Part shown: in pieces, positions 871-35,710 of the stretch
Layout: every line of letters begins with the position of its first letter
Position numbering within the stretch: position 1 is the stretch's first letter
Assembly: GCA_047619465.1 (NCBI GenBank)
Contig: JBLHJW010000003.1
Coordinates: forward strand, 1-36,496
Origin: Minisyncoccia bacterium
GTDB taxonomy: Bacteria > Patescibacteriota > Minisyncoccia > Phycocordibacterales > CSBR16-119
DNA: 36,496 nt
Direction: 5' to 3'
Program-made: the position numbers and the translations under genes
The notes under the pieces: model-generated
What the model was told of the DNA's origin: nothing
Databases searched by the model: none
Seen by the model: only the letters and a program-made list of their open reading frames with translations

Positions 871-922
871 TTGATTTTTTAGATAGGTTTGTTAATCTTT
901 GGAAAAGACAAAACTTCACAAG

Positions 923-1216
923 ATGGCAAACGTAAAAGTATCGAGACATTCAAGAACAGTAAAAGGCTACGATGGTTCTCTGGAGGATTTAGCAATAGAT
1001 GTAGGGAATATGACCTATGATCAAACAGCTAAGTTTATTGACCACTTATCAAAAGACTTACGTAGACAAGCAGAAGGTGATCGTGGTCGCGGAAGACCAA
1101 GACTTGCTCAGAAGCTGGATCAAACAGCAAATTATTTAGAATACAGTAAAAATAATATGGACCTTGCCTGGAATCTATGTGTACCGTATATGCACTCAGA
1201 CGATCTAAGTGATTAA
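923..1216 (+). CDS. Hypothetical helical protein, 97 aa (class-B unit)
   Basis: ATG at 923 preferred over TTG at 899. TTGATT(871)-16-TAATCT promoter, A-rich leader, terminator at 1220-1245. Confidence 0.8.
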   Translation: MANVKVSRHSRTVKGYDGSLEDLAIDVGNMTYDQTAKFIDHLSKDLRRQAEGDRGRGRPRLAQKLDQTANYLEYSKNNMDLAWNLCVPYMHSDDLSD

Positions 1217-1219
1217 AGT

Positions 1220-1245
1220 AAACGGAGATTTGGTTCTCCGTTTTT
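1220..1245 (+). terminator. Intrinsic terminator
   Basis: AAACGGAGA/TCTCCGTTT stem followed by a T run. Confidence 0.8.
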
Positions 1246-1278
1246 GTTTTTAAATCAAGAGGAGTATAATAGAGACAT

Positions 1279-1740
1279 ATGAACATAGATCAAAAATTAC
1301 ATTTGTTTGACGACAAGATTATTCAATGGATAAGAAAGATCGGTGTTCCTTTTGGAAGGTTCTCGCTTTTTCTTGTATATTTCTGGTTTGGTATTTTAAA
1401 GATTATTGGAACAAGCGCAGCTAATCCTCTAGTTGAATCATTGCTGGGAGTCACAACACCGTGGATTCCATTTGCAACATTTGCTGTAGTGTTTGGGGCT
1501 TTTGAGATGTTCGTCGGAATATTATTTCTTAGAAAAGGAGCCGAGAGACTGGCTATCTTCCTAATGGCACTTCACATGCTTATGACATTTCTTCCTCTAA
1601 TTCTTCTACCAGAGATAACCTGGCAAGCATTTCTAACTCCTACAGTTGAGGGGCAATATATAATCAAGAATCTTGTATTTATATCTCTCGGAATGGGACT
1701 TCTAGCTCACTTGCATCCTTTGAAGAAGCAAAGTAAATAA
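1279..1740 (+). CDS. DoxX-family membrane protein
   Basis: Four hydrophobic segments, R..L..VYFWFG.LK and EGQYIIKNLV motifs; TATAAT 8 nt before the ATG. Confidence 0.8.
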   Translation: MNIDQKLHLFDDKIIQWIRKIGVPFGRFSLFLVYFWFGILKIIGTSAANPLVESLLGVTTPWIPFATFAVVFGAFEMFVGILFLRKGAERLAIFLMALHMLMTFLPLILLPEITWQAFLTPTVEGQYIIKNLVFISLGMGLLAHLHPLKKQSK

Positions 1741-1789
1741 AAAAGCACACTCTAAGGTGTGACTTTAATTGGTTTCCGGTGCTCAGGAC

Positions 1790-2131
1790 TTATGGCCTAT
1801 TGATGTTGGACATTGGAATGCAGTCAATTTTTATAATCTTCATTTCCCAGTTTTTTATATCCGAGTATGATCCTGATACTTTGAATTTTCTTTGATTTTT
1901 GTAATCAAATATATTATCTCTTACTTTAATACCTTTTAATTCGTTTTTTTCAACCTCAATTTTGAAAGTAACTCGTGCAGTTTCTTTTACCACTGAGGTC
2001 CTACCTGTAACCCTTTTTGTAATGGATGGTTCTGCTGGGCCAGTTAGTTGAAAAGTGACATTACAAGAGCAGTCATCCTGAGACAAAGCAAGGGATGGAA
2101 AAAATAATAGTGAAATAAGTAGCTTTTTCAT
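1790..2131 (-). CDS. Secreted hypothetical protein (class-B unit)
   Basis: Signal peptide MKKLLISLLFFPSLALS|Q; TTGACA at 2185-2180; A-rich leader; hairpin at 1741-1766 shared with the convergent DoxX gene. Confidence 0.8.
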   Translation of the reverse strand: MKKLLISLLFFPSLALSQDDCSCNVTFQLTGPAEPSITKRVTGRTSVVKETARVTFKIEVEKNELKGIKVRDNIFDYKNQRKFKVSGSYSDIKNWEMKIIKIDCIPMSNINRP

Positions 2132-2230
2132 AAGTTTTGTTCAGTTGTTTTTTAATACTTAAACATAATGATTCTTTTTTGTCAAGCAAAGAAGCTTGCC
2201 ACCAAACAACCCTTAATATAGAATTATCAC

Positions 2231-6367: not shown

Positions 6368-6497
6368 ACGATTAAATAATATAAATAATAACAGAAAAAA
6401 GTATACCTATATTCTCCAAAAAATGCAATACCTTTAATTTGTAATATGTTGACACAGTCCAAGCTCTATAGTAATTTGGAATAAAACAATAACAATC

Positions 6498-6842
6498 ATG
6501 AAAAAGAAAGTTTTTTGCATATTAAAGAAAAATCCTACTGTTTACACCTTGATGGAGCCAGATCTTCAGAAGAGAGGCTATGTGAAAAGTAGTACCTCCC
6601 CAACATGGGTGACAGCAAAAGAATGGATTCCTTTTGGTTTTAAAGAAGAGAAATCTGTAACTGGAAGTCATGTTATCGTTTTCAAGAATATGGTTAAAGA
6701 GATATCAGATATTCTAGATAAGCTAAATGGCCAAAGTCACCAGACTTTTGCAATACTCCTAAGGGGTGAGGAGGTCCAAAGCAAGGATGAATTTCCTGAG
6801 TATCAGTTCTTTGAGTACCAGGTATTGGTTTACAAGCCTTAA
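6498..6842 (+). CDS. Hypothetical protein (class-B unit)
   Basis: TTGACA(6449)-17-TAATTT, leader GGAATAAAACAATAACAATC, terminator at 6851-6879. Confidence 0.8.
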   Translation: MKKKVFCILKKNPTVYTLMEPDLQKRGYVKSSTSPTWVTAKEWIPFGFKEEKSVTGSHVIVFKNMVKEISDILDKLNGQSHQTFAILLRGEEVQSKDEFPEYQFFEYQVLVYKP

Positions 6843-6987
6843 TATTATTCAAAAAAGCCGCATGTTTTGTGGCTTTTTTATATTTTCAAATGAGGAGCAA
6901 TCGGGAGCTCGATCATGTATTGCCCGAATGAAGGAAGTATATGAGCCGAGAGACTCACCGAGTGCCCATATTTGGTATACTTATCAT

Positions 6988-15410: not shown

Positions 15411-15476
15411 GGCTAATATTGTAACAGATGATTGACTTCTTTGTTTTTAAACCTAAATTTAATAAAAATCAAAACA

Positions 15477-15677
15477 ATGACCAATCTAACTGAAAGTAGG
15501 TATTTCTACGACACAATATTTGGTGAATTCAGAGATATTGAAAAGGACCCTCCTGATTCTAGATTTGCAGGCCATGTATATCACCAACCACCAATAAAAT
15601 TCTTCGATCCAAGGTTTGAATCTACATCAAAGCAAGAGTTTACTGACCCAAGGTTTTCCAAAAACCACCAGTTATAG
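15477..15677 (+). CDS. Small hypothetical protein, 66 aa, with DPRF repeats (class-B unit)
   Basis: TTGACT(15432)-16-TAAATT, A-rich leader, ATG at 15477, terminator at 15660-15691. Confidence 0.65.
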   Translation: MTNLTESRYFYDTIFGEFRDIEKDPPDSRFAGHVYHQPPIKFFDPRFESTSKQEFTDPRFSKNHQL

Positions 15678-15692
15678 CTGGTGGTTTTTTTA

Positions 15693-16370: not shown

Positions 16371-16461
16371 AATTCGCTTATTATATCATAAAGCAGTTTA
16401 GTACTGTTAATTGACTTTATTCTCTTTTTGTATAATCTATATAAAAAGTAAAAATTAACAC

Positions 16462-16611
16462 ATGCAGAGAAGAAACTTATTAAGAGCAAGACGATCCTTC
16501 AGATCAAAGGGTGGATTCAGACACGGATACTCCAGATATATTTTTACTGGGAGGCTAAGATCTGAGTATAAAAAACGAATTCTTAAAGAACATTGGGGCT
16601 GTTTAATATAG
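16462..16611 (+). CDS. Arg-rich 49-aa peptide not in the ORF track (class-B unit)
   Basis: MQRRNLLRARRSFRSKGGFRHGYSRYIFTGRLRSEYKKRILKEHWGCLI; TTGACT(16411)-16-TAATCT, A-rich leader, terminator right after the stop. Confidence 0.65.
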   Translation: MQRRNLLRARRSFRSKGGFRHGYSRYIFTGRLRSEYKKRILKEHWGCLI

Positions 16612-16616
16612 ATCCC

Positions 16617-16645: not shown

Positions 16646-16687
16646 GCATCTCATCAAACTGCCCATCAAGCCGAGCCGTTTGAATTT

Positions 16688-20413: not shown

Positions 20414-20518
20414 ATTCTATCACCCTCCAACACAATTGTGTTGGAGGGTTTTTGTTTGCATTGACAAACAGCTATATCTGTGATAGTATATCTTAAACGT
20501 TAAACTAACGAAAAGAAC

Positions 20519-21079
20519 ATGAAAAACGGATTAATTACTTTGATTGCCTTTATTTCTATTGCCTTAACAGTTCATATAATCTTGATGGATAAATACGAAT
20601 GGAAGGCACTCATCCTGGAAAACACTGGCTCTGTGGAACTTTCAGCTACGTCAACAAGCGAATCCGGAAACATTAGCTCAAACTTCAGAAATGATGTTGC
20701 TAATCCATTTTCGGATGCTGTTGGTAAATTCTTGAAAGCAAACCACCCTGCTAGAGTTGAGGGAGTGGTTGTGAAAGTCGAATCCAATGGCGAAGAGTTG
20801 CGTCTTACTTATAAGGCGACCATACAGAAATGCTCTGAAGAAGAAGCACACTTTCACTTCGACCATAGAGGCCTGTTAACTCCCGCTAAAAGTAGCAGAG
20901 GTTGGCTTCAGAACAGTGTTAAGACTCAGGTAGAGGAAGGAGTTCCTGCTACAAAAGCAAAATTTGAAAAAGCTTTTGGAAAAACTGACGTATATCTAGA
21001 TTTCGATAGTGATATCGATGATCTTAGATCATATGGCTTAGCAGAAGCTTTCTTCTGCTCAAGGAAAATCTCTAACTAA
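20519..21079 (+). CDS. Hypothetical membrane-anchored protein (class-B array unit 2)
   Basis: TTGACA(20461)-17-TAGTAT; N-terminal TM helix; terminator at 21093-21121. Confidence 0.82.
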   Translation: MKNGLITLIAFISIALTVHIILMDKYEWKALILENTGSVELSATSTSESGNISSNFRNDVANPFSDAVGKFLKANHPARVEGVVVKVESNGEELRLTYKATIQKCSEEEAHFHFDHRGLLTPAKSSRGWLQNSVKTQVEEGVPATKAKFEKAFGKTDVYLDFDSDIDDLRSYGLAEAFFCSRKISN

Positions 21080-21187
21080 TTTTAGTTAAAGGAAAAAGCC
21101 CCGCATTTGCGGGGCTTTTTTGTTTGAATTTGACAAAGATATTTCTAGGAGTAATATGCAAACAAAAGAACCTTAAAATACATTCAA

Positions 21188-21781
21188 ATGAAAAGATACA
21201 TGGCACTGATTCTGTTATTCACCATTCTTTCCTTTATTTATGGATCAATTGCCAAAACTTTAATTGAGGAATATGCATCAGAAGAAGATTTAAAAGGTTT
21301 CTGCTCCACAACTGCTGACTTCACAAAAAGCGAGATCTTGAAGGTAAGTTTTCCTTTCAAGAGAATTGAGAGTGCTTTTGGAGAGGATTTTAAATATAAG
21401 ATTTTTCCATTACTCTTAATTAGCATCATATTAATGCTAATCGGAAGAGTAAGGACTGAACTTGTGAAGAACAACAAGCAAACAAGAGTAATAATATTTT
21501 TTGTACTTTTTTGTACAACAATAGTTGGAACTGTATTCTTTGGCTTGATTCATGGAAACTTTCTAAATGTTTTTGCTCAAGGTGTTTCTGGTCTCATACA
21601 ATCATTGCTCGTTCTTCTAATAATCGATGATTCACTCAGATTCAGAAAGAGCCCTCTGGAGCATGGAATAAAATTCAATCCATACAGAATATTCTACGGA
21701 CTTCTAGCTGGCTACTTAGCCCTTGTCACTTCGCATTCTTTATTTAACCTGACCATTTTCTACTGGAAAGCATTAAGCTGA
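21188..21781 (+). CDS. CPBP/CAAX-protease-like intramembrane protein (class-B array unit 3)
   Basis: GEDFKYK (EExxxR-like), FGLIH (FxxxH) and HSLFN (HxxxN); TTGACA(21130)-16-TAATAT; terminator at 21787-21810. Confidence 0.65.
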   Translation: MKRYMALILLFTILSFIYGSIAKTLIEEYASEEDLKGFCSTTADFTKSEILKVSFPFKRIESAFGEDFKYKIFPLLLISIILMLIGRVRTELVKNNKQTRVIIFFVLFCTTIVGTVFFGLIHGNFLNVFAQGVSGLIQSLLVLLIIDDSLRFRKSPLEHGIKFNPYRIFYGLLAGYLALVTSHSLFNLTIFYWKALS

Positions 21782-21876
21782 ATTTTAAAACCTCCACTTT
21801 GGGGGTTTTTATATTATATTGACATATGCCATAATTAGTGTTAATTTATAAAAAACAGTTAAATGAACTTTTAATT

Positions 21877-22830
21877 ATGAAAAAAATATTAACTTCCTTT
21901 ATTTGCCTACTTGTAGGCGGGATAATTTCTGCACAGACGAGTTTTACTACTACAAATTTTGAGGCGCTTATCGCCTTAGAAACTGTACAACAAGAAGATG
22001 CTAAATGGGATGCAATGATTGCAGCTCAAGCCAATCAGGCAAATGTTCCCTCTCAGAAATATGACACGTATCTCAGGGAAAGTGGGTACGAGTTTGAAAA
22101 CCACCAACAAGCTTGGTATGTCGTGCACAAAGGAGACACTGTTGGGGAGTTCATTCCTGTATGGAATGTAAATCTGGTAACAAACCAAACAGAGCCTCAT
22201 CTTTTTACAAAAAGAATGACTATGAAAATGCTTCATGACTCATTGAAGTATAGCGTAGCGATAACCCCAGATGGGATGACAGCTGCATCAATGCCTCTAC
22301 GTATGGAAGGAAAGGCTCTTGCCAACGGTGTGCCATGCGGAGATGGCAAGGTCTACAACTATGGAATTATTATCGCGCATACTAAAAAAGTTGGTTTAAC
22401 CTTTACCCACAAGAAAGAGATTCCTGATTTTCAAAACCAATATGACAAGGTCAAGAGAAGTAAGGGGACACTATTCTTTCTTCCTGCGATTTACAATAAA
22501 GGATCAATGAATCCTTCAACAAAATCTACCGTAGACAGAATTCTTGTGAACAGAATAACTCCGAGGGTTAGCAATGACGTTCTTCCTGGCAAGCAACAGG
22601 GCGTGATCGTCTTCTACAAAAGATACAGCTATCCAAAAGTTATGGAAATAGTCTTTGGATTAGACAGAAAATACAAGAATGGATCTACCAAATCTTCCAC
22701 TAAGCATGTCTATGTTTTAGACGGAGGACCAAACTATGGAGCAGTAGTTAAAAAAAACATTAATGGGAACGTTGATGTAATCGGCACCAGGAATTCTGGA
22801 GTTAACTCATGTTATATAGTTTGTTATTAA
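21877..22830 (+). CDS. Secreted hypothetical protein (class-B array unit 4)
   Basis: Start MKKILT at 21877; signal peptide ends ISA|Q; C-terminal YVLDGG weakly recalls phosphodiester glycosidase (NAGPA) domains; TTGACA(21819)-17-TAATTT. Confidence 0.8.
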   Translation: MKKILTSFICLLVGGIISAQTSFTTTNFEALIALETVQQEDAKWDAMIAAQANQANVPSQKYDTYLRESGYEFENHQQAWYVVHKGDTVGEFIPVWNVNLVTNQTEPHLFTKRMTMKMLHDSLKYSVAITPDGMTAASMPLRMEGKALANGVPCGDGKVYNYGIIIAHTKKVGLTFTHKKEIPDFQNQYDKVKRSKGTLFFLPAIYNKGSMNPSTKSTVDRILVNRITPRVSNDVLPGKQQGVIVFYKRYSYPKVMEIVFGLDRKYKNGSTKSSTKHVYVLDGGPNYGAVVKKNINGNVDVIGTRNSGVNSCYIVCY

Positions 22831-22846
22831 AGTTAAAACTATTTTC

Positions 22847-22875
22847 AAAAGCCCCGCCATTCGGCGGGGCTTTTT
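22847..22875. terminator. Bidirectional terminator
   Basis: AAAAGCCCCGCC-ATTC-GGCGGGGCTTTT. Confidence 0.88.
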
Positions 22876-22877
22876 AA

Positions 22878-24629
22878 TTATCCGAGGTCTAGATACTGAT
22901 GAGAGCTGAGCTCTGTATACTCTACAGAACTCATTAGAAGTTCCTTGTGCGTGCCCCAGTCTTTGAGTCTTCCATTTTTAAAGTAAAATATTTTATCAGC
23001 ATTTACTATGGTGGATAGTCTGTGAGCAATGACTATAGTCGTTCTTCCTTTTGATGCTTTATCAATGGCCGCCTGAATCTCCTTTTCATTTTTGGCATCT
23101 AGATTGCTTGTTGCCTCATCAAAGATAAGAATTTTTGGGTCACGAAGGATTGCCCTAGCAATAGACAGTCTCTGCCTCTCCCCTCCAGAAAATCTAATCC
23201 CTTGTTCTCCAATTTTCTCTTTGAGTCCTTTTTTTGATGACATGATCTTCTTGTAAAGGTTTGTCATTCTCAGAGCTTTTAATAAATCCTTATCTGTAGC
23301 TTTCTTGCGTAATCCATACGTTAGGTTTTGCTTAATTGTGTCATCAAAGAGTTGAGTTGTTTGATCCACATAACCTATGTTTGATAGATAGTCAGACAAG
23401 TCCAAATTCTTCAAGTCGATCCCGTCAATTAAAATCCTACCGCCTTTGGGGTCAAAGTTTCTCAAGAGGAGTCTAACCAAAGTTGTTTTTCCTGATCCAG
23501 AAACACCTACAAAAGCAACTTTTTCTCCTGGATTTATTCTGAAAGACACACTGTTTAAACCAAAGGACTTTGATTCCTGTTCTTGATATTTGTATGACAC
23601 TTTTTCAAATTCTATCTCACCGTTTACTACTGCTTTTTTAATGGGATTATCAGCATGTACGATAGTTGATTTTTTATTAAGCTGTTTTTGATAATCCCTT
23701 ATAGGGGGCAAGTGAATCATGATAGCTCTTTGAAACCACTCCACTCTCCATATTCCAGCTACAGCCATCCCTCCCCACGAGACAACCATTAGAAACTGCC
23801 CTATGGTTATAACTCCTGTATAAGCCTGCCAAGACCCCACCAAGAAAAGCAGTCCAATAACAAATGGATTAATCATAGCAATAATGGTCAGTTTCTTAAC
23901 AAATCTAATCCATAATTGCTTTCCGTATTGCTCGTGAGAATCCACAGACTTCATTAGAGCTTTTGCTGCTAAATTCTCAACGCCCAAATTTTTTGTAAGA
24001 GGGGCGTTTCTTATATGTTCTCCAATAGTTTTATGCTTATTTTTACTTTTCTTCTCCCATATATCAAAATCACTCATCATCTTTCTCGCTATTCTTGTCT
24101 GAAAAAATACGTTAAATGAAAGAGCGACAGCCATAATTATCGCGTATACAGGCTTCAAAAGCAGCAAGGCAACCAGTATCGCTACAAACTTGAGGGCCAT
24201 TGGTATGATCTGGTTGAATATCAGGACAGTTAGGTTCATACTCGACTGAACACCTGCCCTCAAAATTGCGGCTTTTTTGTGTGAATTTCCATCCATGTGC
24301 TCTCCTCCAGAAAAAGAAAAGAAGTTTTTAACTCCGCCCCTAAACATGTCTGGCCGATAATCAAAAGCAAAGTTCTTCTGATCATATATAGCATGAAAAT
24401 AGGAAACAACTCTTTCTAGAATCAAAGCCAGAAAGTACACTCCTACTAAACTGACAATAGGTATAAATGAGTTCAGGTCGCCTCTTGTTATCTCGTCGAT
24501 AATATTCCCAGAAAAATACGGGAGCAAAATACTTACCGCCTGTTGTATGAGGGTAAAAAATACTAAGACAGGTATAACAACCTTGTATTTTTTATTAGCC
24601 CCAAATAAAAATCGTAATGATTTTATCAT
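22878..24629 (-). CDS. ABC exporter with fused permease and ATPase domains
   Basis: Six-TM domain, GVSGSGKTT, FSGGERQR, DEATSNLD, IAHRLST. Confidence 0.94.
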   Translation of the reverse strand: MIKSLRFLFGANKKYKVVIPVLVFFTLIQQAVSILLPYFSGNIIDEITRGDLNSFIPIVSLVGVYFLALILERVVSYFHAIYDQKNFAFDYRPDMFRGGVKNFFSFSGGEHMDGNSHKKAAILRAGVQSSMNLTVLIFNQIIPMALKFVAILVALLLLKPVYAIIMAVALSFNVFFQTRIARKMMSDFDIWEKKSKNKHKTIGEHIRNAPLTKNLGVENLAAKALMKSVDSHEQYGKQLWIRFVKKLTIIAMINPFVIGLLFLVGSWQAYTGVITIGQFLMVVSWGGMAVAGIWRVEWFQRAIMIHLPPIRDYQKQLNKKSTIVHADNPIKKAVVNGEIEFEKVSYKYQEQESKSFGLNSVSFRINPGEKVAFVGVSGSGKTTLVRLLLRNFDPKGGRILIDGIDLKNLDLSDYLSNIGYVDQTTQLFDDTIKQNLTYGLRKKATDKDLLKALRMTNLYKKIMSSKKGLKEKIGEQGIRFSGGERQRLSIARAILRDPKILIFDEATSNLDAKNEKEIQAAIDKASKGRTTIVIAHRLSTIVNADKIFYFKNGRLKDWGTHKELLMSSVEYTELSSHQYLDLG

Positions 24630-25181: not shown

Positions 25182-25350
25182 TTTCTATATTTTTAGAAGT
25201 TTCTGAAAATAACTCAAGAAATGGTGCTTTATTGATAAAGTATATAAGGCACCACAATGTATATGCAAATTTTTTCATTACTCTCATTTGATCTATTTTA
25301 ACTAACAATACCATCAAAAAAACAGGGTTACAACCCTGTTTAAATATCAA

Positions 25351-25542
25351 TTAATTTCGTCTCGGGAAAATTCTAAAGTTTCGAAGAAGACTCCAGTTAG
25401 GACTCTTTCGAGCCTGACTTTCTTTCTGAAGCTCGGCAATTCTCTCAAAGCGTCTCATGTCTGATGGCTTCATGTCTTTTAAACTTCTTATTTTGAAATT
25501 CTCGCCATGTACTAAAATGTCACTCAGATTTGTCTTTGGCAT
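25351..25542 (-). CDS. Small basic hypothetical protein (class-B unit)
   Basis: TTGTAA-16-TATACT overlapping the trpS stop, A-rich leader, terminator at 25316-25341. Confidence 0.68.
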   Translation of the reverse strand: MPKTNLSDILVHGENFKIRSLKDMKPSDMRRFERIAELQKESQARKSPNWSLLRNFRIFPRRN

Positions 25543-25580
25543 GACTTTGTTTTTATTCAGTATATATCAAAAAAGCAGTG

Positions 25581-26549
25581 TTACAACCCCACTTTTTCTT
25601 TTACTTCTTTCATTTTTTCTTCAGCAACCTTTCGAGCTTTTCTAGACCCTTCTGACAAAATTTTGTCTACCAATTCTGGATTTAATTCAAACTTTTCTCT
25701 ACGTTCTCTCATGGGGGCAATCATCTCAATAACCGCTTCAAGAAGAAGTTTCTTTGCATCTCCATACCCAAGTCCCCCAGTCTCTAGTCCTGATTTCATT
25801 TCTTCGACCTTCTCAACTGAAGCAACAAGTTTGTATATCTGATAAACAATTACATCATCTGGATTCTTTTTATCTTCAGGCTCTTTACTGTCTGTGACAA
25901 TAGACATCACAGCTTTCTTAATTTCAGAATCAGTTCCAAAAAGTGGAATTGTATTGTTATAAGACTTACTCATCTTCTGACCGTCCACACCAGGAACAAC
26001 AGCTACATCCTTCAGAATCATGGCTTCAGGCTCTGCAAAAGTATCTCCGTAATGGTTATTGAACTTTCTGGCAATATCTCGTGCCATTTCAACATGCTGC
26101 TCTTGATCTTTTCCGACAGGAACAACTTCTCCGTCCATCATAAGTATGTCAGCGGCCATAAGAACAGGATAGTCGTATAAACCAACAGAAGCCTCTATTC
26201 CCTTCTCGGTTTTATCTTTATATGAGTGGGCACGTGCCAACCATGGCATGGTAACCAAACAATTAAAAATCCAAGTCAGCTCTGGAAGTTCTGGAAGTTC
26301 TGACTGAACAAAGAGTGTTATTTTTTCCGGGTCAAGACCAACAGCTAAATAGTCTAAAACAACGTCTCGAGTAAATTTAAGCAAATCATCTCTGTTTTGA
26401 ACTGTTGTTAGAGCATGATAGTTAACTACAGATATAAAAGCATTATGAGAATTTTGAAACTCTACAAACTGACGCATAGCTCCGAGGTAGTTTCCTAAGT
26501 GTAATTGACCAGAAGGCTGTATAGCGGATACAAGTGTTTTCTTTTTCAT
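25581..26549 (-). CDS. trpS: Tryptophan--tRNA ligase
   Basis: IQPSGQLHLGNY, YPVLMAADIL, VPVGKDQ, KMSKS; TGA-TACAAT 6 nt before the ATG. Confidence 0.97.
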   Translation of the reverse strand: MKKKTLVSAIQPSGQLHLGNYLGAMRQFVEFQNSHNAFISVVNYHALTTVQNRDDLLKFTRDVVLDYLAVGLDPEKITLFVQSELPELPELTWIFNCLVTMPWLARAHSYKDKTEKGIEASVGLYDYPVLMAADILMMDGEVVPVGKDQEQHVEMARDIARKFNNHYGDTFAEPEAMILKDVAVVPGVDGQKMSKSYNNTIPLFGTDSEIKKAVMSIVTDSKEPEDKKNPDDVIVYQIYKLVASVEKVEEMKSGLETGGLGYGDAKKLLLEAVIEMIAPMRERREKFELNPELVDKILSEGSRKARKVAEEKMKEVKEKVGL

Positions 26550-26589
26550 AGAAGCATTGTATCAGAAAGGAGCAAACAAAAAAGACCCA

Positions 26590-26994
26590 TTACTTGAGTC
26601 TTTGTTTAAATGGTCTAATGTGAGCCTTACTATACAGACTCATCATATATGATTTATTTGCTAGAAAAAAAGCCGCTTTGATGGGTTCTTCCTCTGAGTT
26701 TGCTGTGTAGGCTGTGAATTTCCCCGGACCTTTTTCCATAAAATATTTCAGCCACTGAGTATAAAAATCCATTTCTACTATCAAATAATGATCTTCATTA
26801 GAAAGCAACCACCTATCGATTTTTGGTAGAGAATCCCTGTGAATTTTTAAAGGATCTTTACCCATGTAGTCAATTTCGAATCGAGAGAATAATAATTTAT
26901 TAAAAAAAGATTCCTCGCTTATTCTGATATCAAACATAAGATTATGAGAACCCTCAGAGGGTTTATGCCTCGTAGAAGGAATTAAATGTACCAT
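26590..26994 (-). CDS. Hypothetical protein (class-B unit)
   Basis: TTGACA(27046)-16-TAACCT, A-rich leader, terminator at 26574-26608. Confidence 0.78.
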   Translation of the reverse strand: MVHLIPSTRHKPSEGSHNLMFDIRISEESFFNKLLFSRFEIDYMGKDPLKIHRDSLPKIDRWLLSNEDHYLIVEMDFYTQWLKYFMEKGPGKFTAYTANSEEEPIKAAFFLANKSYMMSLYSKAHIRPFKQRLK

Positions 26995-27044
26995 TCTATG
27001 TCTTTTTAATTTTAATTTAGGTTATCATAATTTATTTAGATGTC

Positions 27045-27317
27045 AAAAAAAATAACCCCAAGGAACTCGGGGTTATTTCGCAGCGTGCGGTGCTTTTGAA
27101 TGCATGGCAGCTGCTGGCAGAGTGATGAAGAACCAACAAGACCACTCTGAGTGTGGCGGAGGTCCCAAAGTTTGGGAAGAAAAAGAAATCCACTTTTCCC
27201 TGAGGGTTGAATTTCCTTTACGCAAGAGATGATAGCTCTTGCAGAGATTCAATCTTCCTAAACTTTGGTAAACAGGCTTTAGGCCTGAGTCCTCCCATGT
27301 GTCATTAAAAAGAACGG
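27045..27317 (-). ncRNA. Candidate structured non-coding RNA, family not recognised
   Basis: TTGCCA(27352)-17-GATACT promoter, at least six helices, terminator at 27050-27078, no ATG-initiated ORF longer than 26 aa. Confidence 0.6.
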
Positions 27318-29459: not shown

Positions 29460-29471
29460 ATTGAGTATCAA

Positions 29472-29500
29472 AAAAGGCGGAACAAATTGTTCCGCCTTTT
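29472..29500. terminator. Bidirectional terminator
   Basis: AAAAGGCGGAACAA-A-TTGTTCCGCCTTTT. Confidence 0.88.
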
Positions 29501-29513
29501 GTATTAAATTAAA

Positions 29514-32500
29514 TTAATGAGATAGAATCTTCACAGACCCTTCATCATTGCTTCCTGTCCAAACAACGATCTGTCGTCCGAAGGTTACATCACCTCGAAC
29601 AATGTCATTTAGTTTTACTAGGTTACGAGAAAGTTCTCGTCCGCTAATATCAACAACTTTTCCAGACGCATTGGGACTCCTAGATAGAATTTCCTTTATT
29701 CCATTAGGTTCCGTTTCCAACAAGTAAGTTTCTGTTGTCGCAGGGTAAAGTCCGCCACCAACTTTAACAAACATCTTGAAAAAGTATAAGGTAGCTGAAT
29801 TTAGCTCCTCCATAGCGAAAAGATATTCGCCATCGAGTATTCCATCCTGAACGGGAGTAAAATTCTCGTTAGGAGTTAGCTGTCCATATCCAACATAAAG
29901 TTCGACATCTTCAACTCCGTTAATATCCACGTACCAACTAACGGATGCCGCGTTATGATAGATCAAAGTATATGGACCATCATAAACAACAACAGAGTCA
30001 ACTGGTTCTGGAGGTGTAATTGGACCCTCATCGGTCGTAAAATACAACCAAGGACCAGTATACAAATCTCCGGAATTGTCATACAAGATTCCTCTTGCTG
30101 ACACAAACTCACCAGCAGACAAGCCACTCAAACCTTGAGTGTAAACTCCTTGAGAGCTCACAGACTGGAATGTTGAATTCAAAGTATTATTCATGAACTC
30201 ATATTCGACCCGGAAACTTACTCCAGGTAAATTACCATTTGTCAGTACAAAGGTTAGCATGGCAGTATTGATACCAACAGAAACAGTGTCACTGTTGGTA
30301 ATCATTGGAACAGGAGGCTCAACCACTACAACTGGACCTAAGTCCGTTATAAACTGCTGAATTGGTCCTAGAACCATGACATTGCCCAGACCGTCTAAAA
30401 GTCTTGCCTGATACAAACACGTAGAACCAGCTGGTAAACCATTCAAACTTGTCGTGTACAAACCATCTAGAGGTATTGACTGTTGAGCCGAATACATAAC
30501 CTGGCCCTGAACTGTGTATTTGTAGTCATGAAAAAGACCTATCCAATCACCCATTACGATATTTGAAACTAGTGTTGCTGACGTTGAATCAACAACAAGA
30601 GTATCACTGTTCAGTATTACAGGATTCACAACAACAATCACAGGACCTTCGTCCGTAGTGAACTGTTCCCATGATGACTGATAAAACATTCCATACTGGT
30701 TAGATAATTCTACTTGCCACGACACCAACGTTCCTACTGGAAGTGGGTTTAGGTTTGCGAGATAGTTTCCCCAAGTTGGTGACATCACACTTGGTGGTGT
30801 CGAGAATGTCATACTATTGTACGAGTAGTTTACACTGTACATAGTATTCAGTGAGTCATTTGCTGCTCCTTCGAAGCCAACAGTTGCCGCTGTTGAATCA
30901 ACACTAAGCGTGTCAAGATTCATAACAACTGGACCCTCTAAAGGATCTGGTGGCAGAATTACAGGACCTTCGTCCGTAGTAAATTGCTCCCATGAAGACG
31001 ACTGAAAAACTCCATACTGGTTAGATAATTCTACTTGCCAGAAAACCAACCTTCCCGAAAGAAGTGGATTCAAATTAACAAGATAGCTACCCCAAGTTTG
31101 AGACATCGCACTTGGAGCTGTCGAGAATGCCATGTTGTCGTAATTATAATTTATACGATACATGGTATTTAGAGAATCATTGGCTTCACCCTGGAAACCA
31201 ACAACTGCCCCCGTTGAATCAACACTAAGCGTGTCAAGATTTACAACAACCGGACCAAACAACTGCACTGGTGGCACAATCGTGTCAGGCAATGCAGGAA
31301 GCGTAAAGAAATTGTTAAATTGCGCTTCTGAATATCCACCACTACTATTAGTGGCATCCATTGTAAACCAGACAATGACCGTCTGACCAATTTGTCTGTA
31401 CGGATCACCATCAAAGCTAAGTGAGGAATTTGTTGCTCCTGTAATATTCTCAGTTGCAACTGGCACGTTGATCACCTGTGGGTTCAATCCAATTTTCACT
31501 CTCGTGTCTGCCGTAGCAGCAGGATTGCTTATATCTGGATTACACCAGTATGAGATCTGTACCCACCCAGTGATTGGATCATAAAATCCATTTCCCATGT
31601 TTATTTGAGGAAGTACTCCAGGTCCGGCAATCGCGAACGATCCACCATCTTGGTACTGACCAACTGTGTCAGTAATCTCAATAGACCAATCATACGTAGT
31701 GTTGAAAACTCCCGAAAGAGCAAAACAAGACGCCCCAGACCACTCGAAAGTGGTATCTAGTAAAACTGGACCATTTAATGCAGCCTGAACAATTAATTCA
31801 ACTGTAGCTCCGTTCGAATCCTGACTAATCACATCATCTAAACAAAACGTATAACTGTTTGTGTTTATCTGCTGTGTGTATGTAGCCGTTGGACCATCTG
31901 CATTTGCAGTGGAGAACACTCTATTCACAGTTTCTGTTTGCGAATCCACATTCTGAGTCAGTGTTACCTGAACAGCATAACTTGTATTCACAACAGTACC
32001 GCTAATAGGTATAGCTAAACCAGTACTTGGGCCCTGTGGAACTGTTCCACCTGGGAAAGTTCCTAATCCTGGAACATATACTGAAACATTTCCACCTCCG
32101 CCAAAGACGGTGGCATCAACGTAAACAACAGAATTATACCAATCCAAAACAACAATAGTGTCTATGGAAAGAATAGGATTGTCATAGCCGGTCGTAGCTA
32201 AATTCGCTGTGTAGACCTGCGGATCACCCAAACTGTTATTTACAGTAAGGACCGCAGTGACAGGTGTCTCTGACGTCCAAATAGGAATCCATTGACATCC
32301 ATCTGTCGAATCAGCAAAAGCATATGTAGATGCAAGAATTGTATCTACTCCAACAACATACTCAAGTGTTACTGAACCCGTAAGGTCATTCGACTGAGCA
32401 TCAAAACAAACGAGAACTGAGTCTACGTTTGATCCTCCGTCTGAGACGGAACCTGTTGGAAGCTCGGGAAGCGTAGTTGTAAAAGTGTCTGGCACGAATG

Positions 32501-33185
32501 CTGACGATTCATTTATCAACTGATCCTCTGCATAGGCTTGAACCCAGTACGAGTTTCCTGGTAGAAGTCCAAATATACTCAAGTCGGCTTCAGCATTTGG
32601 TCCTTGCACATAGGCAGAACCAGCAGACCACTGAGCTGACCCTGGGCCAACTGCAATGTCGTAGTACCAATAACGCACATAAGCACCCGCATGGGCATCA
32701 AGTGACGTTCTGATATTTAGCGAAGTCTGCAATGCTTCAAGCAGAACAATTCCGGAGATAATAGGCTGATCGTGTTCCCACATGGTGGTCCCACTAATAG
32801 CGTAAGTACTGACTTCGGAATAAACCGAATCAGTCCCCCCAGTTGTATCTGCAACTTGTCCAACGATAATATATCCGTTGGTTTCATTCTCGTATAGACC
32901 TTCCACATAGTGAGGCATAGGAATGGTGTTCCCTTCGTAATACGTAGTATCCGATCGGTGCATTCCATCCTCTGACTCTGTGTAGAATCTTCCCACCAAG
33001 TTTGACGTTGCTGGATTGATGTTTACTCCACCTTTGCCGTAAACGACAAGACTTGAATCTGTAAGTGTATAGTTCTCATACGTTGCCGTAGAGTCGATAA
33101 ACACATTCGGAGTTGGTGTTTGAGCGCTAGCCCAATTAGTAATTGCCACTATGGCGATTACCAAACTTAGCATTTTTCTTTTCAT
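29514..33185 (-). CDS. Large secreted beta-rich protein, 1223 aa, with FN3-like repeats and a T9SS-CTD-like tail (class-B unit)
   Basis: Start MKRKML at 33185; signal peptide ends ASA|Q; ~100-aa modules ending F(T/I)TD.GP; tail GIKEI..KVVDISGREL..G..IV..VKI; TTGACT(33257)-17-TAGGTT. Confidence 0.85.
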   Translation of the reverse strand: MKRKMLSLVIAIVAITNWASAQTPTPNVFIDSTATYENYTLTDSSLVVYGKGGVNINPATSNLVGRFYTESEDGMHRSDTTYYEGNTIPMPHYVEGLYENETNGYIIVGQVADTTGGTDSVYSEVSTYAISGTTMWEHDQPIISGIVLLEALQTSLNIRTSLDAHAGAYVRYWYYDIAVGPGSAQWSAGSAYVQGPNAEADLSIFGLLPGNSYWVQAYAEDQLINESSAFVPDTFTTTLPELPTGSVSDGGSNVDSVLVCFDAQSNDLTGSVTLEYVVGVDTILASTYAFADSTDGCQWIPIWTSETPVTAVLTVNNSLGDPQVYTANLATTGYDNPILSIDTIVVLDWYNSVVYVDATVFGGGGNVSVYVPGLGTFPGGTVPQGPSTGLAIPISGTVVNTSYAVQVTLTQNVDSQTETVNRVFSTANADGPTATYTQQINTNSYTFCLDDVISQDSNGATVELIVQAALNGPVLLDTTFEWSGASCFALSGVFNTTYDWSIEITDTVGQYQDGGSFAIAGPGVLPQINMGNGFYDPITGWVQISYWCNPDISNPAATADTRVKIGLNPQVINVPVATENITGATNSSLSFDGDPYRQIGQTVIVWFTMDATNSSGGYSEAQFNNFFTLPALPDTIVPPVQLFGPVVVNLDTLSVDSTGAVVGFQGEANDSLNTMYRINYNYDNMAFSTAPSAMSQTWGSYLVNLNPLLSGRLVFWQVELSNQYGVFQSSSWEQFTTDEGPVILPPDPLEGPVVMNLDTLSVDSTAATVGFEGAANDSLNTMYSVNYSYNSMTFSTPPSVMSPTWGNYLANLNPLPVGTLVSWQVELSNQYGMFYQSSWEQFTTDEGPVIVVVNPVILNSDTLVVDSTSATLVSNIVMGDWIGLFHDYKYTVQGQVMYSAQQSIPLDGLYTTSLNGLPAGSTCLYQARLLDGLGNVMVLGPIQQFITDLGPVVVVEPPVPMITNSDTVSVGINTAMLTFVLTNGNLPGVSFRVEYEFMNNTLNSTFQSVSSQGVYTQGLSGLSAGEFVSARGILYDNSGDLYTGPWLYFTTDEGPITPPEPVDSVVVYDGPYTLIYHNAASVSWYVDINGVEDVELYVGYGQLTPNENFTPVQDGILDGEYLFAMEELNSATLYFFKMFVKVGGGLYPATTETYLLETEPNGIKEILSRSPNASGKVVDISGRELSRNLVKLNDIVRGDVTFGRQIVVWTGSNDEGSVKILSH
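30637..31257 (-). repeat. Tandem intragenic duplication, period 321 nt
   Basis: ACAGGACCTTCGTCCGTAGT occurs at 30640 and 30961; NLDTLSVDST..WQVELSNQYG..WEQFTTDEGPVI occurs twice. Confidence 0.92.
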
Positions 33186-33240
33186 TCTTATTGATTTTTT
33201 TATTAATGTTCTACTTATATTTGAGTTAAACCTACCATAG

Positions 33241-33259
33241 TATTGACAAAAAGTCAATA
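33241..33259. promoter_or_regulatory. Palindrome containing two opposed TTGAC boxes
   Basis: TATTGAC-AAAAA-GTCAATA between the divergent large gene and rsmE. Confidence 0.5.
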
Positions 33260-33294
33260 TGTATCCATGGTTATCATCTTGGTAGACTAGAACC

Positions 33295-33981
33295 ATGAAA
33301 ATTCATCGATTCTTCAGCCCTTCCATAGATAAGACGGATGAGATAACTATCTCTGACAGGGATTTAGTACACCAAATGCACAATGTACTCAAGCTCCAGA
33401 ATGGAGAGTTTGTAGAGCTATTTGACGGCTCTGGGGACGCTTTACTAGGTGAGATAGGTGATGTTTCTAAGAAATCCCTAATTCTAAATAAGAAAGAGGT
33501 TAAGTCTGTAGAAGATACTCGAAAAGATATCTTTGCCTATATTCCCCTCCTGAAGCGATCCAATACAGAACTGATGATTCAAAAGCTAACTGAACTTGGT
33601 ATCAAAAATATAATCCCAATCAAAACTGACAGAACTATCAAGTCTGATGTAAATTTAGATAGACTGAAGAAAATATCACTTGAAGCTACCGAGCAATCTG
33701 GCCAGTACTTCCTGTCAAAAATAAGTGAGCCTATTAAACTAAAAGACGCCATAGAAATAGCGTCTGGTACAGATATATTTGTTTTGGATATGGGAAGAGA
33801 ATCCTTCCGAGACAACAAGCGTGATTACCCACTATCTTTCTTTATTGGCCCTGAAGGAGGTTGGACAGACGAAGAGCGAGAACTATTCAAAGGGTCATCT
33901 GCAAAAATTGTATCCCTCACAGAAACTACTTTGCGTGGAGAAACTGCCGCTATTAATGCCGCATACGAAAGCCTTGTGTAA
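33295..33981 (+). CDS. rsmE: 16S rRNA (uracil1498-N3)-methyltransferase
   Basis: HNVLKL, QKLTELG, EATEQS, FIGPEGGW, LRGETAA; TGG-TAGACT 6 nt before the ATG. Confidence 0.95.
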   Translation: MKIHRFFSPSIDKTDEITISDRDLVHQMHNVLKLQNGEFVELFDGSGDALLGEIGDVSKKSLILNKKEVKSVEDTRKDIFAYIPLLKRSNTELMIQKLTELGIKNIIPIKTDRTIKSDVNLDRLKKISLEATEQSGQYFLSKISEPIKLKDAIEIASGTDIFVLDMGRESFRDNKRDYPLSFFIGPEGGWTDEERELFKGSSAKIVSLTETTLRGETAAINAAYESLV

Positions 33982-34038
33982 AAAAATACGACCTCTCCAA
34001 TCGTAGAGGTCGCTTATTATACCTTTTCTTAAAGTTGT

Positions 34039-34437
34039 CTATTTTTCTTGAAGCGGGGGTAGCATTACCCAATTAATGGCAGGAAATTTACTGTAACCAC
34101 CATTAGAGTTTTCGCCATCCATGGAAAACCATAATCGAACAGTTTTATCAACTTCCCGAAATGGGTTGCCATCAAACTCAAAAGAATAGTTTCCAACTTC
34201 TGAAATTTCTTTTACTGCGACAATGGTATTTATACTATCCGGGCTTGTACCGACTTTTAGTGTGGCTACACCTGTAGCAAACTGATCAGTTGGGTCTGGT
34301 TTGAACCAAAAACCAATACTGACATGGTTACTTTCGGAATCTATATACGCGTTACCCATATTCATCATTTGGCCATTAACCAAATTATTAGCTATTATTA
34401 ATATAGCAATAGCTAGACTTAAAGTTTTGATTCGCAT
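34039..34437 (-). CDS. Secreted single-domain paralog of part of the 1223-aa protein (class-B unit)
   Basis: Signal peptide ends VNG|Q; TTGACA(34489)-16-TAAACT; hairpin at 33989-34012. Confidence 0.85.
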   Translation of the reverse strand: MRIKTLSLAIAILIIANNLVNGQMMNMGNAYIDSESNHVSIGFWFKPDPTDQFATGVATLKVGTSPDSINTIVAVKEISEVGNYSFEFDGNPFREVDKTVRLWFSMDGENSNGGYSKFPAINWVMLPPLQEK

Positions 34438-34478
34438 TTTCTTCAGTTTTCGTTTTTTTACAGTTTACCATAAACAAG

Positions 34479-35189
34479 TTATTTGTCAAGTTTATAAATA
34501 TTATTAAAAATAGCCTTGATTTCCTTAGTAGATATAACTCTTGCGTCATCAACCTTATAATCCCCTATTGATGTTCGTCTGAGCGCTGAAAGTGTAGCTG
34601 GCACGCCAAGCCGGTCCCCCAGTTCACGAGCAAGACTGCGAATATATGTTCCTGATCCAACATCAAAAGTTACTGAAAGATATATCTCACTTCCCTTTCT
34701 CTCTATGTCTTTTATTTCAGCTGAAATAATATTCATGGTTTTTATGGGAACATCTATAGCCTGACCCTTGCGAGCATATTTGTAGAGAGCCTTTCCGTCA
34801 CGTTTTATGGCGGAGTACACAGGCACAGCAATCTCCTGTTCTCCAGCTAGAGTTTTTACTTTTACTCTAATATCATCATCGCTCAAAGTACTTGCATCTG
34901 CCTCAGCGACAATCTCCCCTTCTAGGTCATCTGTTGTTGTCTGCTTCCCAAGCAGTATCATAGAATCATAAGTTTTCGATTCTCCTATAAGACCCGTCAA
35001 ACTTTTTGTCATCTTTCCAAGTCCAACTAGTAGCAGGCCTGTAGCTCTAGGGTCCAGAGTTCCAGCGTGTCCTATCTTAATCTTGGGATAACCAGCCTCC
35101 CTATATTCGCGTTTCAAAAAACGGATCACATCGTATGATGTGACTCCAAAAGGCTTGTCTATAAGTAATAGTTCCGACTCAGGATTCAT
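34479..35189 (-). CDS. truB: tRNA pseudouridine(55) synthase
   Basis: LLIDKP.G.TS, KIGHAGTLDPRATGLL, P.YSAIK, GTYIRSLA; start moved to MNPES at 35189. Confidence 0.96.
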   Translation of the reverse strand: MNPESELLLIDKPFGVTSYDVIRFLKREYREAGYPKIKIGHAGTLDPRATGLLLVGLGKMTKSLTGLIGESKTYDSMILLGKQTTTDDLEGEIVAEADASTLSDDDIRVKVKTLAGEQEIAVPVYSAIKRDGKALYKYARKGQAIDVPIKTMNIISAEIKDIERKGSEIYLSVTFDVGSGTYIRSLARELGDRLGVPATLSALRRTSIGDYKVDDARVISTKEIKAIFNNIYKLDK

Positions 35190-35289
35190 AGACAATACTT
35201 TATGAAAAATACGCCAAACAATCAAGTGCTGCGTGTTTGACAAAATAACATTCAGGGTATAGTCTCAGTACAAACAAAAGAAAGAAGTA

Positions 35290-35658
35290 ATGTTCACATA
35301 TGGAGAACTTGGGCCAAAAGTAGGCCGCCAACTAATCAAAATTAAGCAAGGAATAATTTCAAACAAGGAAACTATTTCTGATTTCAAAAAAACACACGCG
35401 TGGTCAAAAGACCTTCTTTCAGAAGAAGGTGGGGAGTCTAAAATCTTTAATAATCTGGTAAGCGGAGAAGTCACTATTAGATCTAAGAGACTAACTAAGG
35501 AACCGGTAGAGAAAAAACTACCTGTTACCCACCAGGAAAAACCATATGCCGCTGAAGTTTCTGTTTGTGGAAAAGACTACATTTTGCGAATTCTTTGCGG
35601 AAAGAACTCACAGCATAAATATGTTGTACATGAGTACGAACTGGAAAAAATACTATAA
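35290..35658 (+). CDS. Hypothetical basic protein (class-B unit)
   Basis: TTGACA(35237)-17-TAGTCT, A-rich leader, terminator at 35662-35685. Confidence 0.78.
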   Translation: MFTYGELGPKVGRQLIKIKQGIISNKETISDFKKTHAWSKDLLSEEGGESKIFNNLVSGEVTIRSKRLTKEPVEKKLPVTHQEKPYAAEVSVCGKDYILRILCGKNSQHKYVVHEYELEKIL

Positions 35659-35710
35659 ATTAAGGCGACCTTGAGTCGCCTTTTTATTTTATATAAAGTA
35701 TACTTTTCTC

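Follow-up and report, generated by a model that had tools for sequence, protein, structure and literature searches.

Phage morons are units with an independent promoter, an open reading frame (ORF) and a terminator that lie between the core genes of related phages, as stated in PMC3594210. The minimal mobile elements (MMEs) of Neisseria, according to PMC3082526, are incorporated by homologous recombination in their flanks after transformation, and PMC9297842 describes a subgroup of Parcubacteria in which the anti-Shine-Dalgarno (anti-SD) motif has been lost. Here, a window of 36,496 nucleotides (nt), the entire contig C3 of a Minisyncoccia bacterium of the Patescibacteriota, was analysed. In this window, an earlier reading of the bare letters (the original prediction) had described 15 dispersed single-gene units, named below after their ORF starts (c, complementary strand), each with a near-consensus promoter (TTGAC in 13 of 15), an A-rich leader without Shine-Dalgarno (SD) word, an orphan ORF and its own terminator. 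The observation as a whole was confirmed, and the units are probably ordinary but unusually complete single-gene transcription units, with accessory, lineage-restricted and fast-evolving genes located in slots that turn over between related species.

In having an own promoter, a single ORF and an own terminator, in being absent from the corresponding junction of a close relative, and in sitting between conserved genes without disrupting them, the units look like morons as defined in PMC3594210; however, they lie in a cellular chromosome among housekeeping genes, not in a phage or prophage. The likeness to MMEs, as these are presented in PMC3082526, comprises conserved flanking genes, unrelated occupants in each genome and the lack of own mobility genes, and a gene for the DNA-uptake channel ComEC is present. 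Nevertheless, species of one genus are compared here instead of strains, and mostly single genes with a stereotyped strong promoter fall outside the MME definition given there. Integron cassettes are also single-ORF modules varying between related genomes, but they are promoterless, carry attC, depend on an integron integrase and form an array at a single locus, whereas the units here are dispersed and come with a promoter each, a repeat shared by their flanks was not found, and the genome holds a single tyrosine recombinase. With the anti-SD-less Parcubacteria, as described in PMC9297842, this genome shares a 16S rRNA 3' end without CCTCC and genes without SD words, and with leaderless-gene genomes a sharp peak of -10 boxes 6 nt upstream of start codons. 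What differs from both here is a split between a leaderless core and leadered young genes with a consensus -35 box. In the literature searched, subscription journals and supplements aside, no description was found of a link between consensus -35 boxes and lineage-specific genes in Patescibacteria, nor of a leaderless/leadered split in this group.

All 15 ORFs were present at the predicted starts, with lengths of 49-1223 amino acids (aa), and none of the 15 (923, 2131c, 6498 and 16462 included) has a Pfam match at E<=0.01, in agreement with the statement that no recognisable housekeeping gene is among them. The ATGs at 21877 and 33185 were preferred over longer frames because signal-peptide-like N-termini start there. 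TTGAC was found in 13 of the 15 units, the exceptions being 923 (TTGATT) and 25542c (TTGTAA), and the -35 box starts 44-72 nt upstream of the ATG, where about 45-72 nt had been predicted. In the best-scoring assignment the two hexamers are separated by 15-17 nt (for 16462 the site at -51 was used instead), and the -10 box ends 16-43 nt upstream of the ATG, with leaderless spacing in none of the 15 units. The leaders are indeed A-rich (48-71% A in 14 units, 16462 aside) and lack SD words, GGAG, GAGG or AGGA being found in 0/15. By folding, a hairpin was detected at or after the stop in all 15 units (minimum free energy in an 85-nt window, -11.8 to -32.4 kcal/mol); a terminator scan alone picks up 10 of these, and 18949 is followed by a weak T-run. 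That none of the units is operonic stands for most of them, with the exception of 25542c and 34437c, where read-through is possible because no terminator separates them from the upstream same-strand gene. Orphan status fails for 21877 at least, which belongs to a family of 30 proteins with a remote phosphodiester glycosidase look. Signal or membrane N-termini were found in 7 of the 15 proteins.

Fourteen matches to the strict pattern, TTGAC-N16-18-TANNNT, were counted in the window, versus 5.99±2.01 in 100 dinucleotide shuffles, none of which reaches 14. Eleven of these matches lie directly upstream of the claimed ORFs and three are intragenic. The source genome is a small-genome Patescibacteria (candidate phyla radiation, CPR) metagenome-assembled genome, with 661,236 bp in 32 contigs, a completeness of 96% and a GC content of 38%, and 30 genomes of related species (0.5-0.9 Mb) were compared with it. 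In the following, G000 designates this genome, G001 and G002 two congeners, and G003 a family-level relative from another genus. Genome-wide, 664 genes were called with a simple codon-score caller and regarded as conserved when a tblastn match with E<1e-5 was found in the whole G003 genome; by adding the whole G001 genome, family-conserved, genus-only and species-only tiers were defined. With regard to an alternative genetic code, TGA is the stop of just 18 out of 375 long ORFs, but table 11 ORFs of at least 100 aa span 83% of the genome.

A strong association was found between the strict promoter and lack of conservation. Considering all lead genes, it precedes 49 of the 180 non-conserved and 9 of the 193 conserved ones (p=1e-9), so that the enrichment among ORFans relative to core genes proposed as a check was indeed observed. 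If an upstream gap of 80 nt or more is required, the figures are 40/142 versus 8/144, a wider scan window keeps the effect (47/142 versus 14/144), and TTGAC alone is found at 57/142 versus 19/144. The -10-type words are equal in non-conserved and conserved genes (TGnTAnnnT, 61/142 and 56/144; TATAAT, 37/142 and 45/144), and the most class-discriminating k-mers are TTGACA and its neighbours. The -35 match of conserved genes (2.43/6) is that of the offset control (2.43/6), while the distribution in non-conserved genes is bimodal, with 36/142 at 5-6 of 6. Strict promoters have a genome-wide density of 0.89 per kb in intergenic versus 0.10 per kb in coding DNA. Their frequency at lead genes follows the conservation tier, from 8/144 in family-conserved to 10/47 in genus-only and 32/95 in species-only genes, and within the genus-only tier it amounts to 9/21 at <=55% identity versus 1/26 above. 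When G003 was analysed itself, the strict promoter was found at 24/115 non-conserved versus 6/132 conserved genes.

The dispersed class is thus statistically real and extends over the genome, with about 55 strict non-conserved genes, 47/55 of which have an own terminator versus 31% of 380 conserved genes. They are spread over most contigs, 5 adjacent pairs being found versus 6.4 expected. The comparison of codon usage between the classes gave a divided result: GC content at third codon positions (GC3) is not deviant (0.325 versus 0.312, p=0.10), the codon score is lower, and overall GC content is 0.363 versus 0.387. Paralogs are rare (3.6%), hydrophobic N-termini show a modest excess (36% versus 22%), and a Pfam match was obtained for 3 of 20 random strict units (out of the 48 outside the window) versus 6 of 10 other non-conserved genes.

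The core genes show a different promoter architecture. Across all genes, TAnnnT peaks 6 nt upstream of the start codon (15% versus a baseline of 3-4%), and at the same gap it is found in 2% of the 55 strict non-conserved units, at or below background. Such spacing would place the first transcribed base at the A of the ATG, which points to leaderless mRNAs for core genes. The -10 boxes of this type have a weak -35 match (mean 2.7/6) and a TG extension in about 45% of cases. For lead genes whose gap reaches 40 nt or more, the leaderless type was assigned to 74/198 family-conserved, 17/67 genus-only and 32/130 species-only genes, and the leadered TTGAC type to 10/198, 13/67 and 38/130, respectively (chi-square p=1.4e-7); the offset control for the leaderless type in conserved genes gave 28/198. 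The split by tier recurs in G003 (p=5.8e-7). In the window, a -10 box 6-8 nt upstream of the ATG was found for rsmI-like, 2952, mraY, dacA-like, scpA, 24996c, trpS/tyrS-like, dnaB, rsmE-like and uppP, among others. The original prediction had therefore caught one side of a real split between two architectures.

This split may also be read as a two-tier expression code of anti-SD-less Patescibacteria tied to gene age, an idea that we put forward tentatively. New genes would arrive in, or be swapped into, slots between operons as insulated modules with a -35-dependent promoter, an A-rich leader and a terminator; in persisting genes, deletion-biased streamlining would remove leader and -35 box until a TG-extended -10 box adjoins the ATG and the mRNA is leaderless. 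The age gradient fits gradual loss of leaders and -35 boxes in a streamlining genome, and it equally fits selection for high, autonomous expression of young genes. If the two-tier code were true, promoter architecture would report gene age and mark, in uncultured CPR bacteria, a repertoire for host interaction with fast turnover and probably high expression.

Rather unlikely, in our opinion, is that there is no class at all, and that the units are merely monocistronic genes with a sigma-70 promoter and a terminator, the contrast arising since core genes sit in operons. The promoter does follow the general sigma-70 consensus and also serves housekeeping genes, the lack of SD words is genome-wide, a looser promoter scan does not rise above chance, and the enrichment in terminators is partly a by-product of the monocistronic state. 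However, even when both a gap of 80 nt or more and an own terminator are required of lead genes, the strict promoter precedes 35/76 non-conserved versus 2/41 conserved genes. The gradient with conservation tier, a difference confined to the -35 box with equal -10 boxes, the leaderless-type spacing of conserved lead genes and the recurrence of the pattern in G003 also speak against this explanation.

The leader had been proposed as part of the class layout, but it turned out to be a property of the whole genome. GGAG, GAGG or AGGA occurs at -20..-4 in 39 of 657 called genes versus 75/657 in a control window further upstream, and, in all genes taken together, A accounts for about 45% and G for 10% of positions -13..-2. 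At its 3' end, the 16S rRNA (locus L001) lacks the CCTCC anti-SD, and G003 is SD-less as well (32/636 versus 64 in the control). The genome analysed here encodes a protein with at least three S1 domains. An SD-less leader is no class mark, because the lineage has lost the anti-SD and hence all its genes are SD-less. The caution to be drawn is that the term "SD-less leader" carries no meaning in a lineage without anti-SD.

In an alignment of 61 strict promoters, conservation is limited to the two hexamers, a TG extension in about 40% of the sequences and an AAA located 6-8 nt downstream of the -10 box (69-79% A). The AAA is probably the transcription start site, and the end of the -10 box lies at a median of 29 nt from the start codon. 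These positions suggest strong housekeeping-sigma promoters with leaders of roughly 15-30 nt. The strict promoter was also found at 10 family-conserved genes, one unassigned and nine with Pfam domains: ribosomal proteins S6 and S19, initiation factor IF-3, a class-1 release factor, trigger factor, ClpB, KhpA, a SpoU methylase and a TraG-like ATPase. Its presence at translation and chaperone genes would suggest a strong promoter. The proposal of a second gene class with its own expression grammar is therefore upheld in one half only: the class is linked to lineage-restricted genes and contrasts with the core architecture, but its promoter is the standard sigma-70 consensus common to the S6, S19, IF-3, release factor, trigger factor and ClpB genes, so that no private grammar exists. 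The strict promoter of locus L145 lies upstream of a G003-conserved gene for a TraG/VirD4-like type IV coupling ATPase.

We regard as improbable a regulon in which a dedicated factor reads TTGACA and switches the set on, for example upon host contact. The class hardly varies in its -35 box, which core promoters almost entirely lack, and besides one complete RpoD the genome encodes one extracytoplasmic function (ECF)-like sigma factor and one protein with a sigma-70 region-4 domain and a HARE-HTH; the signal or membrane N-termini of about half of the window proteins would also fit. The latter protein (locus L101) has 342 aa, an N-terminal region-4 domain and no region 2, is conserved in G003, and may be a -35-box-binding factor, judging from its domains. 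However, TTGACA-N17-TAnnnT is the RpoD consensus, and ECF sigma factors usually recognise other motifs. Moreover, translation and chaperone genes use the promoter too, the proteins are heterogeneous, with hydrophobic N-termini only modestly in excess, and no additional operator-like conserved positions were detected in the 61 aligned promoters, so that the co-regulated programme envisaged in the original prediction was not shown.

The comparison with close relatives points to slots with variable content. Core genes are collinear in the syntenic contigs of G001 and G002, with 54-90% identity, whereas for 8 of the 15 units no homolog was found in these contigs. Alignment revealed clean junctions: the gap between scpA and the cofE-like gene measures 6 nt in both G001 and G002 versus 283 nt here, the insert spanning exactly from the -35 box to the terminator of unit 15477, and the gap between the rsmE-like gene and truB measures 30 nt in G001 versus 498 nt here. 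Slot occupants in the relatives have the same promoter type. When the 55 strict non-conserved units were compared with the syntenic G001 slot, 10 homologs with 27-49% identity were found there and 2 elsewhere, 32 units had none and 11 were not evaluable. Of the 32 units without homolog, two face a G001 slot of <150 nt, three a slot of 150-400 nt and the other 27 one of at least 400 nt; the last figure corresponds, in this species-level comparison, to slots of the MME type, and these slots mostly contain an own strict promoter. Positional orthology beyond recognition was considered as the sole cause of the missing homologs and rejected, as only 3 of 30 G001 occupants retain weak similarity (z>=5) to the G000 protein.

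Two observations concern the insert between the cofE-like gene and scpA. The hairpin of unit 15477 is bordered by an A-run and, on the opposite side, by a T-run, and may therefore terminate both strands. In addition, the -10 box TGTTACAAT, located 7 nt upstream of the scpA ATG, lies within the 283-nt insert, which may thus have given scpA a new leaderless promoter.

Altogether, the favoured reading, that of complete single-gene transcription units in turning-over slots, would work as follows. Each unit would be headed by a promoter for the housekeeping sigma factor that is close to consensus (TTGACA, about 17 nt, TAnnnT, in many cases TG-extended); transcription would probably start at the AAA found about 7 nt downstream of the -10 box, and would cover an A-rich leader of about 15-35 nt, one ORF and an intrinsic terminator. 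The units would encode lineage-restricted, fast-evolving accessory proteins, about half of them with signal or membrane N-termini, and occupy slots between syntenic core genes, with contents turning over between congeneric species. The core genes would mostly be -35-poor, with an often TG-extended -10 box 6-8 nt upstream of the ATG giving rise to leaderless mRNAs. We infer that units enter or swap via homologous recombination in conserved flanks after DNA uptake, and that their self-sufficiency, provided by own promoter and terminator, would let a newcomer function in any slot without disturbing its neighbours.

A different mode of entry, quite improbable in our view, would be an unrecognised site-specific capture system, integron-like or other, inserting promoter-ORF-terminator modules as cassettes. 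The two clean junctions, an insert running exactly from -35 box to terminator, the unrelated occupants of the same slots in congeners and the dispersal of the units are what such a system would produce. Nevertheless, the 61 aligned promoters share only -35 box, -10 box and the start AAA, and neither they nor the terminator-stem scan of the genome revealed a shared border repeat or an attC-like repeat. The terminator stems are diverse, the commonest stem word accounting for 16 of 260 two-strand hits, neither of the two clean junctions shows an evident target-site duplication, and integron cassettes lack promoters of their own. The original prediction had seen no integrase, transposase or attC site in the window; genome-wide, no integrase system and no rve or DDE_Tnp_1 transposase were found either, the single tyrosine recombinase, possibly a Xer-type housekeeping enzyme, being encoded on another contig. 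In the absence of an integrase system, an attC-like repeat or a transposase, the gene-capture machine that had been suggested was not shown, and a dedicated one is therefore unsupported. A MITE- or REP-like element (miniature inverted-repeat transposable element; repetitive extragenic palindrome), suggested by short blastn matches of two terminators at many loci, was also rejected: stems are diverse, and the GCCCCGC(C) type occurs at about 5 loci, listed on both strands. Finally, phage-derived morons or scattered prophage remnants are highly improbable, for although the units match the moron definition in PMC3594210, their neighbours are core genes with no phage genes among them, GC3 is not deviant, about 55 units are spread over most contigs, and no relatives in viral contigs were found for the 3 of 15 units tested, in a search that reaches close relatives only.

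Several points weigh against the favoured reading. The looser scan for 9-of-12 consensus matches was not enriched over shuffles (51 versus 52.8±7.3; 44 versus 49.1±6.8), and the signal therefore resides in the near-perfect -35 box. The association is a statistical tendency, since 61-66% of species-only lead genes lack a strict promoter and 25% are of the leaderless type. Coding signal is weak in three short members (15477, 16462 and 25542c). In addition to the three slot occupants with residual similarity, four more are borderline, and divergence beyond recognition could explain part of the turnover. Among contigs of strains about 2-3% diverged, the units are present and no whole-unit gain or loss was seen, joints with 20-21-letter sides having been disregarded as unreliable. 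The gene calls and start codons come from a crude home-made caller, conservation was judged by tblastn with two reference genomes, one at the family and one at the genus level, and the genomes used for replication are kin, not independent samples. Moreover, promoter use, promoter strength and leaderless status are all read from the DNA.

Most Patescibacteria have not been cultured, and nearly half of their genes lack a known function. A rule based on the sequence would separate an old core (leaderless, -35-poor) from young accessory genes (leadered, with consensus -35 box and terminator). It would offer a cheap way of picking fast-evolving, probably well-expressed proteins that may mediate host contact, would improve the calling of gene starts in SD-less genomes, and would allow a test of how new genes are expressed in streamlined genomes without mobile-element machinery.

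Table 1. Coordinates of the 15 units and of other features named in the text. Plain numbers are window positions; G000:C entries give contig and positions in this genome.
Feature	Extent	Strand	-35 box	-10 box	ORF	Hairpin or terminator
Unit 923	871..1251	+	TTGATT 871-876	TAATCT 893-898	923-1216 (97 aa)	terminator 1220-1243
Unit 2131c	1738..2185	-	TTGACA 2180-2185		1790-2131 (113 aa)	hairpin 1746-1761
Unit 6498	6449..6885	+	TTGACA 6449-6454		6498-6842 (114 aa)	terminator 6851-6879
Unit 15477	15432..15692	+	TTGACT 15432-15437		15477-15677 (66 aa)	hairpin 15660-15689
Unit 16462	16411..16649	+	TTGACT 16411-16416, with TGTATAAT region		16462-16611 (49 aa)	hairpin 16617-16643
Unit 18949	18889..19247	+	TTGACT 18889-18894		18949-19203 (84 aa)	hairpin 19213-19240
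Unit 20012	19949..20454	+	TTGACA 19949-19954	TAGTAT, TG-extended	20012-20413 (133 aa)	terminator 20422-20449
Unit 20519	20461..21127	+	TTGACA 20461-20466		20519-21079 (186 aa)	terminator 21092-21121
Unit 21188	21130..21812	+	TTGACA 21130-21135		21188-21781 (197 aa)	terminator 21787-21809
Unit 21877	21819..22880	+	TTGACA 21819-21824		21877-22830 (317 aa)	hairpin 22847-22874
Unit 25542c	25313..25586	-	TTGTAA 25581-25586		25351-25542 (63 aa)	terminator 25320-25341
Unit 26994c	26574..27046	-	TTGACA 27041-27046		26590-26994 (134 aa)	terminator 26581-26603
Unit 33185c	29466..33257	-	TTGACT 33252-33257		29514-33185 (1223 aa)	hairpin 29472-29500
Unit 34437c	33982..34489	-	TTGACA 34484-34489		34039-34437 (132 aa)	bidirectional hairpin 33988-34013
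Unit 35290	35237..35690	+	TTGACA 35237-35242		35290-35658 (122 aa)	terminator 35662-35682
scpA/cofE-like gap	15411-15692					
Variable patch, 5' part and promoter of 26994c	26701-27023					
Variable patch, inside large gene 33185c	30363-30628					
Stretch without confident gene call	6842-8012					
Frame with a part conserved in G001 and G002	6766-7311					
Stretch screened with Rfam	7312-8011					
16S rRNA (locus L001)	G000:C10:21622-23148	-				
Region-4 + HARE-HTH protein (locus L101)	G000:C2:4220-5248					
TraG/VirD4-like ATPase (locus L145)	G000:C5:15790-18087					
Orphan with Por_Secre_tail domain (locus L088)	G000:C4:18667-19350					
tRNA (locus L143, 318-391)	G000:C11:18017-18090					

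The units differ in how far relatives can be traced. No homolog was found in any of the 30 related genomes for 2131c, 6498 and 20012. The product of 2131c has a signal-peptide-like N-terminus, and its slot measures 83 nt in G002 and is occupied by a different, 203-aa ORF in G001; that of 20012 is membrane-like. A relative of 923 was found in 1/30 genomes, from another family, with 34% identity. The sole match of 21188 among 5.8 billion proteins is a 96%-identical copy, and an exhaustive HMMER search of 1.84 billion representatives gave a single match for 26994c (62% identity). Considering G001 and G002, the homolog of 18949 is restricted to G002 (52% identity, syntenic) and that of 20519 to G001 (36% identity, syntenic, identical promoter type); no viral relative of 20519 was detected in a search that reaches close relatives only. 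For 35290, syntenic homologs of 120 and 118 aa with 27-33% identity and a strict promoter each are present in G001 and G002, and an Atlas search gave no usable match.

Three short units are atypical. In 15477, the hairpin encodes the final codons of the ORF, and the coding score lies below the limit of the gene caller. The product of 16462 is very basic, its ORF is overlapped by an antisense 64-aa ORF, and its hairpin is the strongest terminator of the units (-32.4 kcal/mol); sub-threshold matches only were found around the unit, with no Rfam family at E<=0.01, and the unit is not alignable to the corresponding slot of G001 or G002, where nothing similar is present. Instead of a protein, this unit may encode a small RNA. 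The -35 box of 25542c overlaps the end of the trpS/tyrS-like gene, and the unit is conserved in G001 (65%) and, at another position, in G002 (40%). It is possibly an atypical, co-transcribed member without TTGAC.

The product of 21877 carries a signal peptide and, out of G001 and G002, has a homolog in G001 only (54%). It belongs to a family of 30 hypothetical proteins with 33-59% identity, whose profile was found in just 1/30 related genomes. With 30 homologs known elsewhere, such a scattered distribution suggests that the gene has been transferred, or else lost repeatedly. An AlphaFold2 (AF2) model was obtained with a predicted local distance difference test (pLDDT) score of 81.8, and the top three Foldseek matches of this model are to NAGPA phosphodiester glycosidase (probability 1.0, template modelling (TM) score 0.39-0.47). 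A feature search of the Atlas points to the same enzyme, and the predicted structure looks like that of a remote phosphodiester glycosidase. A short WD40 match, the only one of the profile against PDB sequences, was judged spurious.

The large product of 33185c also has a signal peptide, and its G001 homolog shows 39% identity over 1027 aa and the same promoter type. The product of 34437c, with a signal peptide as well, is paralogous to a segment of this 1223-aa secreted protein and matches inside the large G001 gene with 58% identity over 109 aa; from these matches, a domain seems to have been copied out to form a unit of its own. In comparison with the strain contigs, the 5' part of 26994c with its promoter stands opposite 325 unlike letters in contigs X3 and X4, and a stretch inside the large gene 33185c opposite 282 unlike letters in X3, and both are, on this comparison, taken to be local hypervariable patches.

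The core genes of the window are ordinary ones: Ham1, rsmI-like, DUF4015, an S41 peptidase, L9, L27, gltX, murG, ftsW, mraY, a D-Ala-D-Ala carboxypeptidase, scpB, scpA, CofE-like, aspS/asnS-like, DUF2177, an ABC transporter, trpS/tyrS-like, dnaB, recR, rsmE-like, truB and uppP. Of these, rsmI-like, L27, scpA, aspS/asnS-like, the ABC transporter, trpS/tyrS-like, dnaB, recR, rsmE-like, truB and uppP were noted as flanks of the units. No Rfam family reached the gathering score anywhere in the window, the stretch 7312-8011 included. The stretch from 6842 has no confident gene call; a part of about 115 aa of the frame that overlaps it is 69-71% identical in G001 and G002, and this frame is likely, from such identity, a conserved gene with a later start.

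Outside the window, a strict TTGAC promoter was also found at a tRNA gene (locus L143). ARAGORN called it a suppressor "tRNA-Stop(tta)", an assignment that was rejected: Rfam (61.4 bits) aligns the loop CUUUUAA, with the anticodon UUU, and the gene is probably, on that alignment, the otherwise missing tRNA-Lys(UUU). Several orphans of the window have signal peptides ending in ...SAQ or ...AQ, which we take to be of Bacteroidota style. The strict-promoter orphan of locus L088 encodes a protein with a signal peptide and a Por_Secre_tail domain (E=1.4e-10), a C-terminal sorting domain of type IX secretion that is unexpected in a Patescibacterium.

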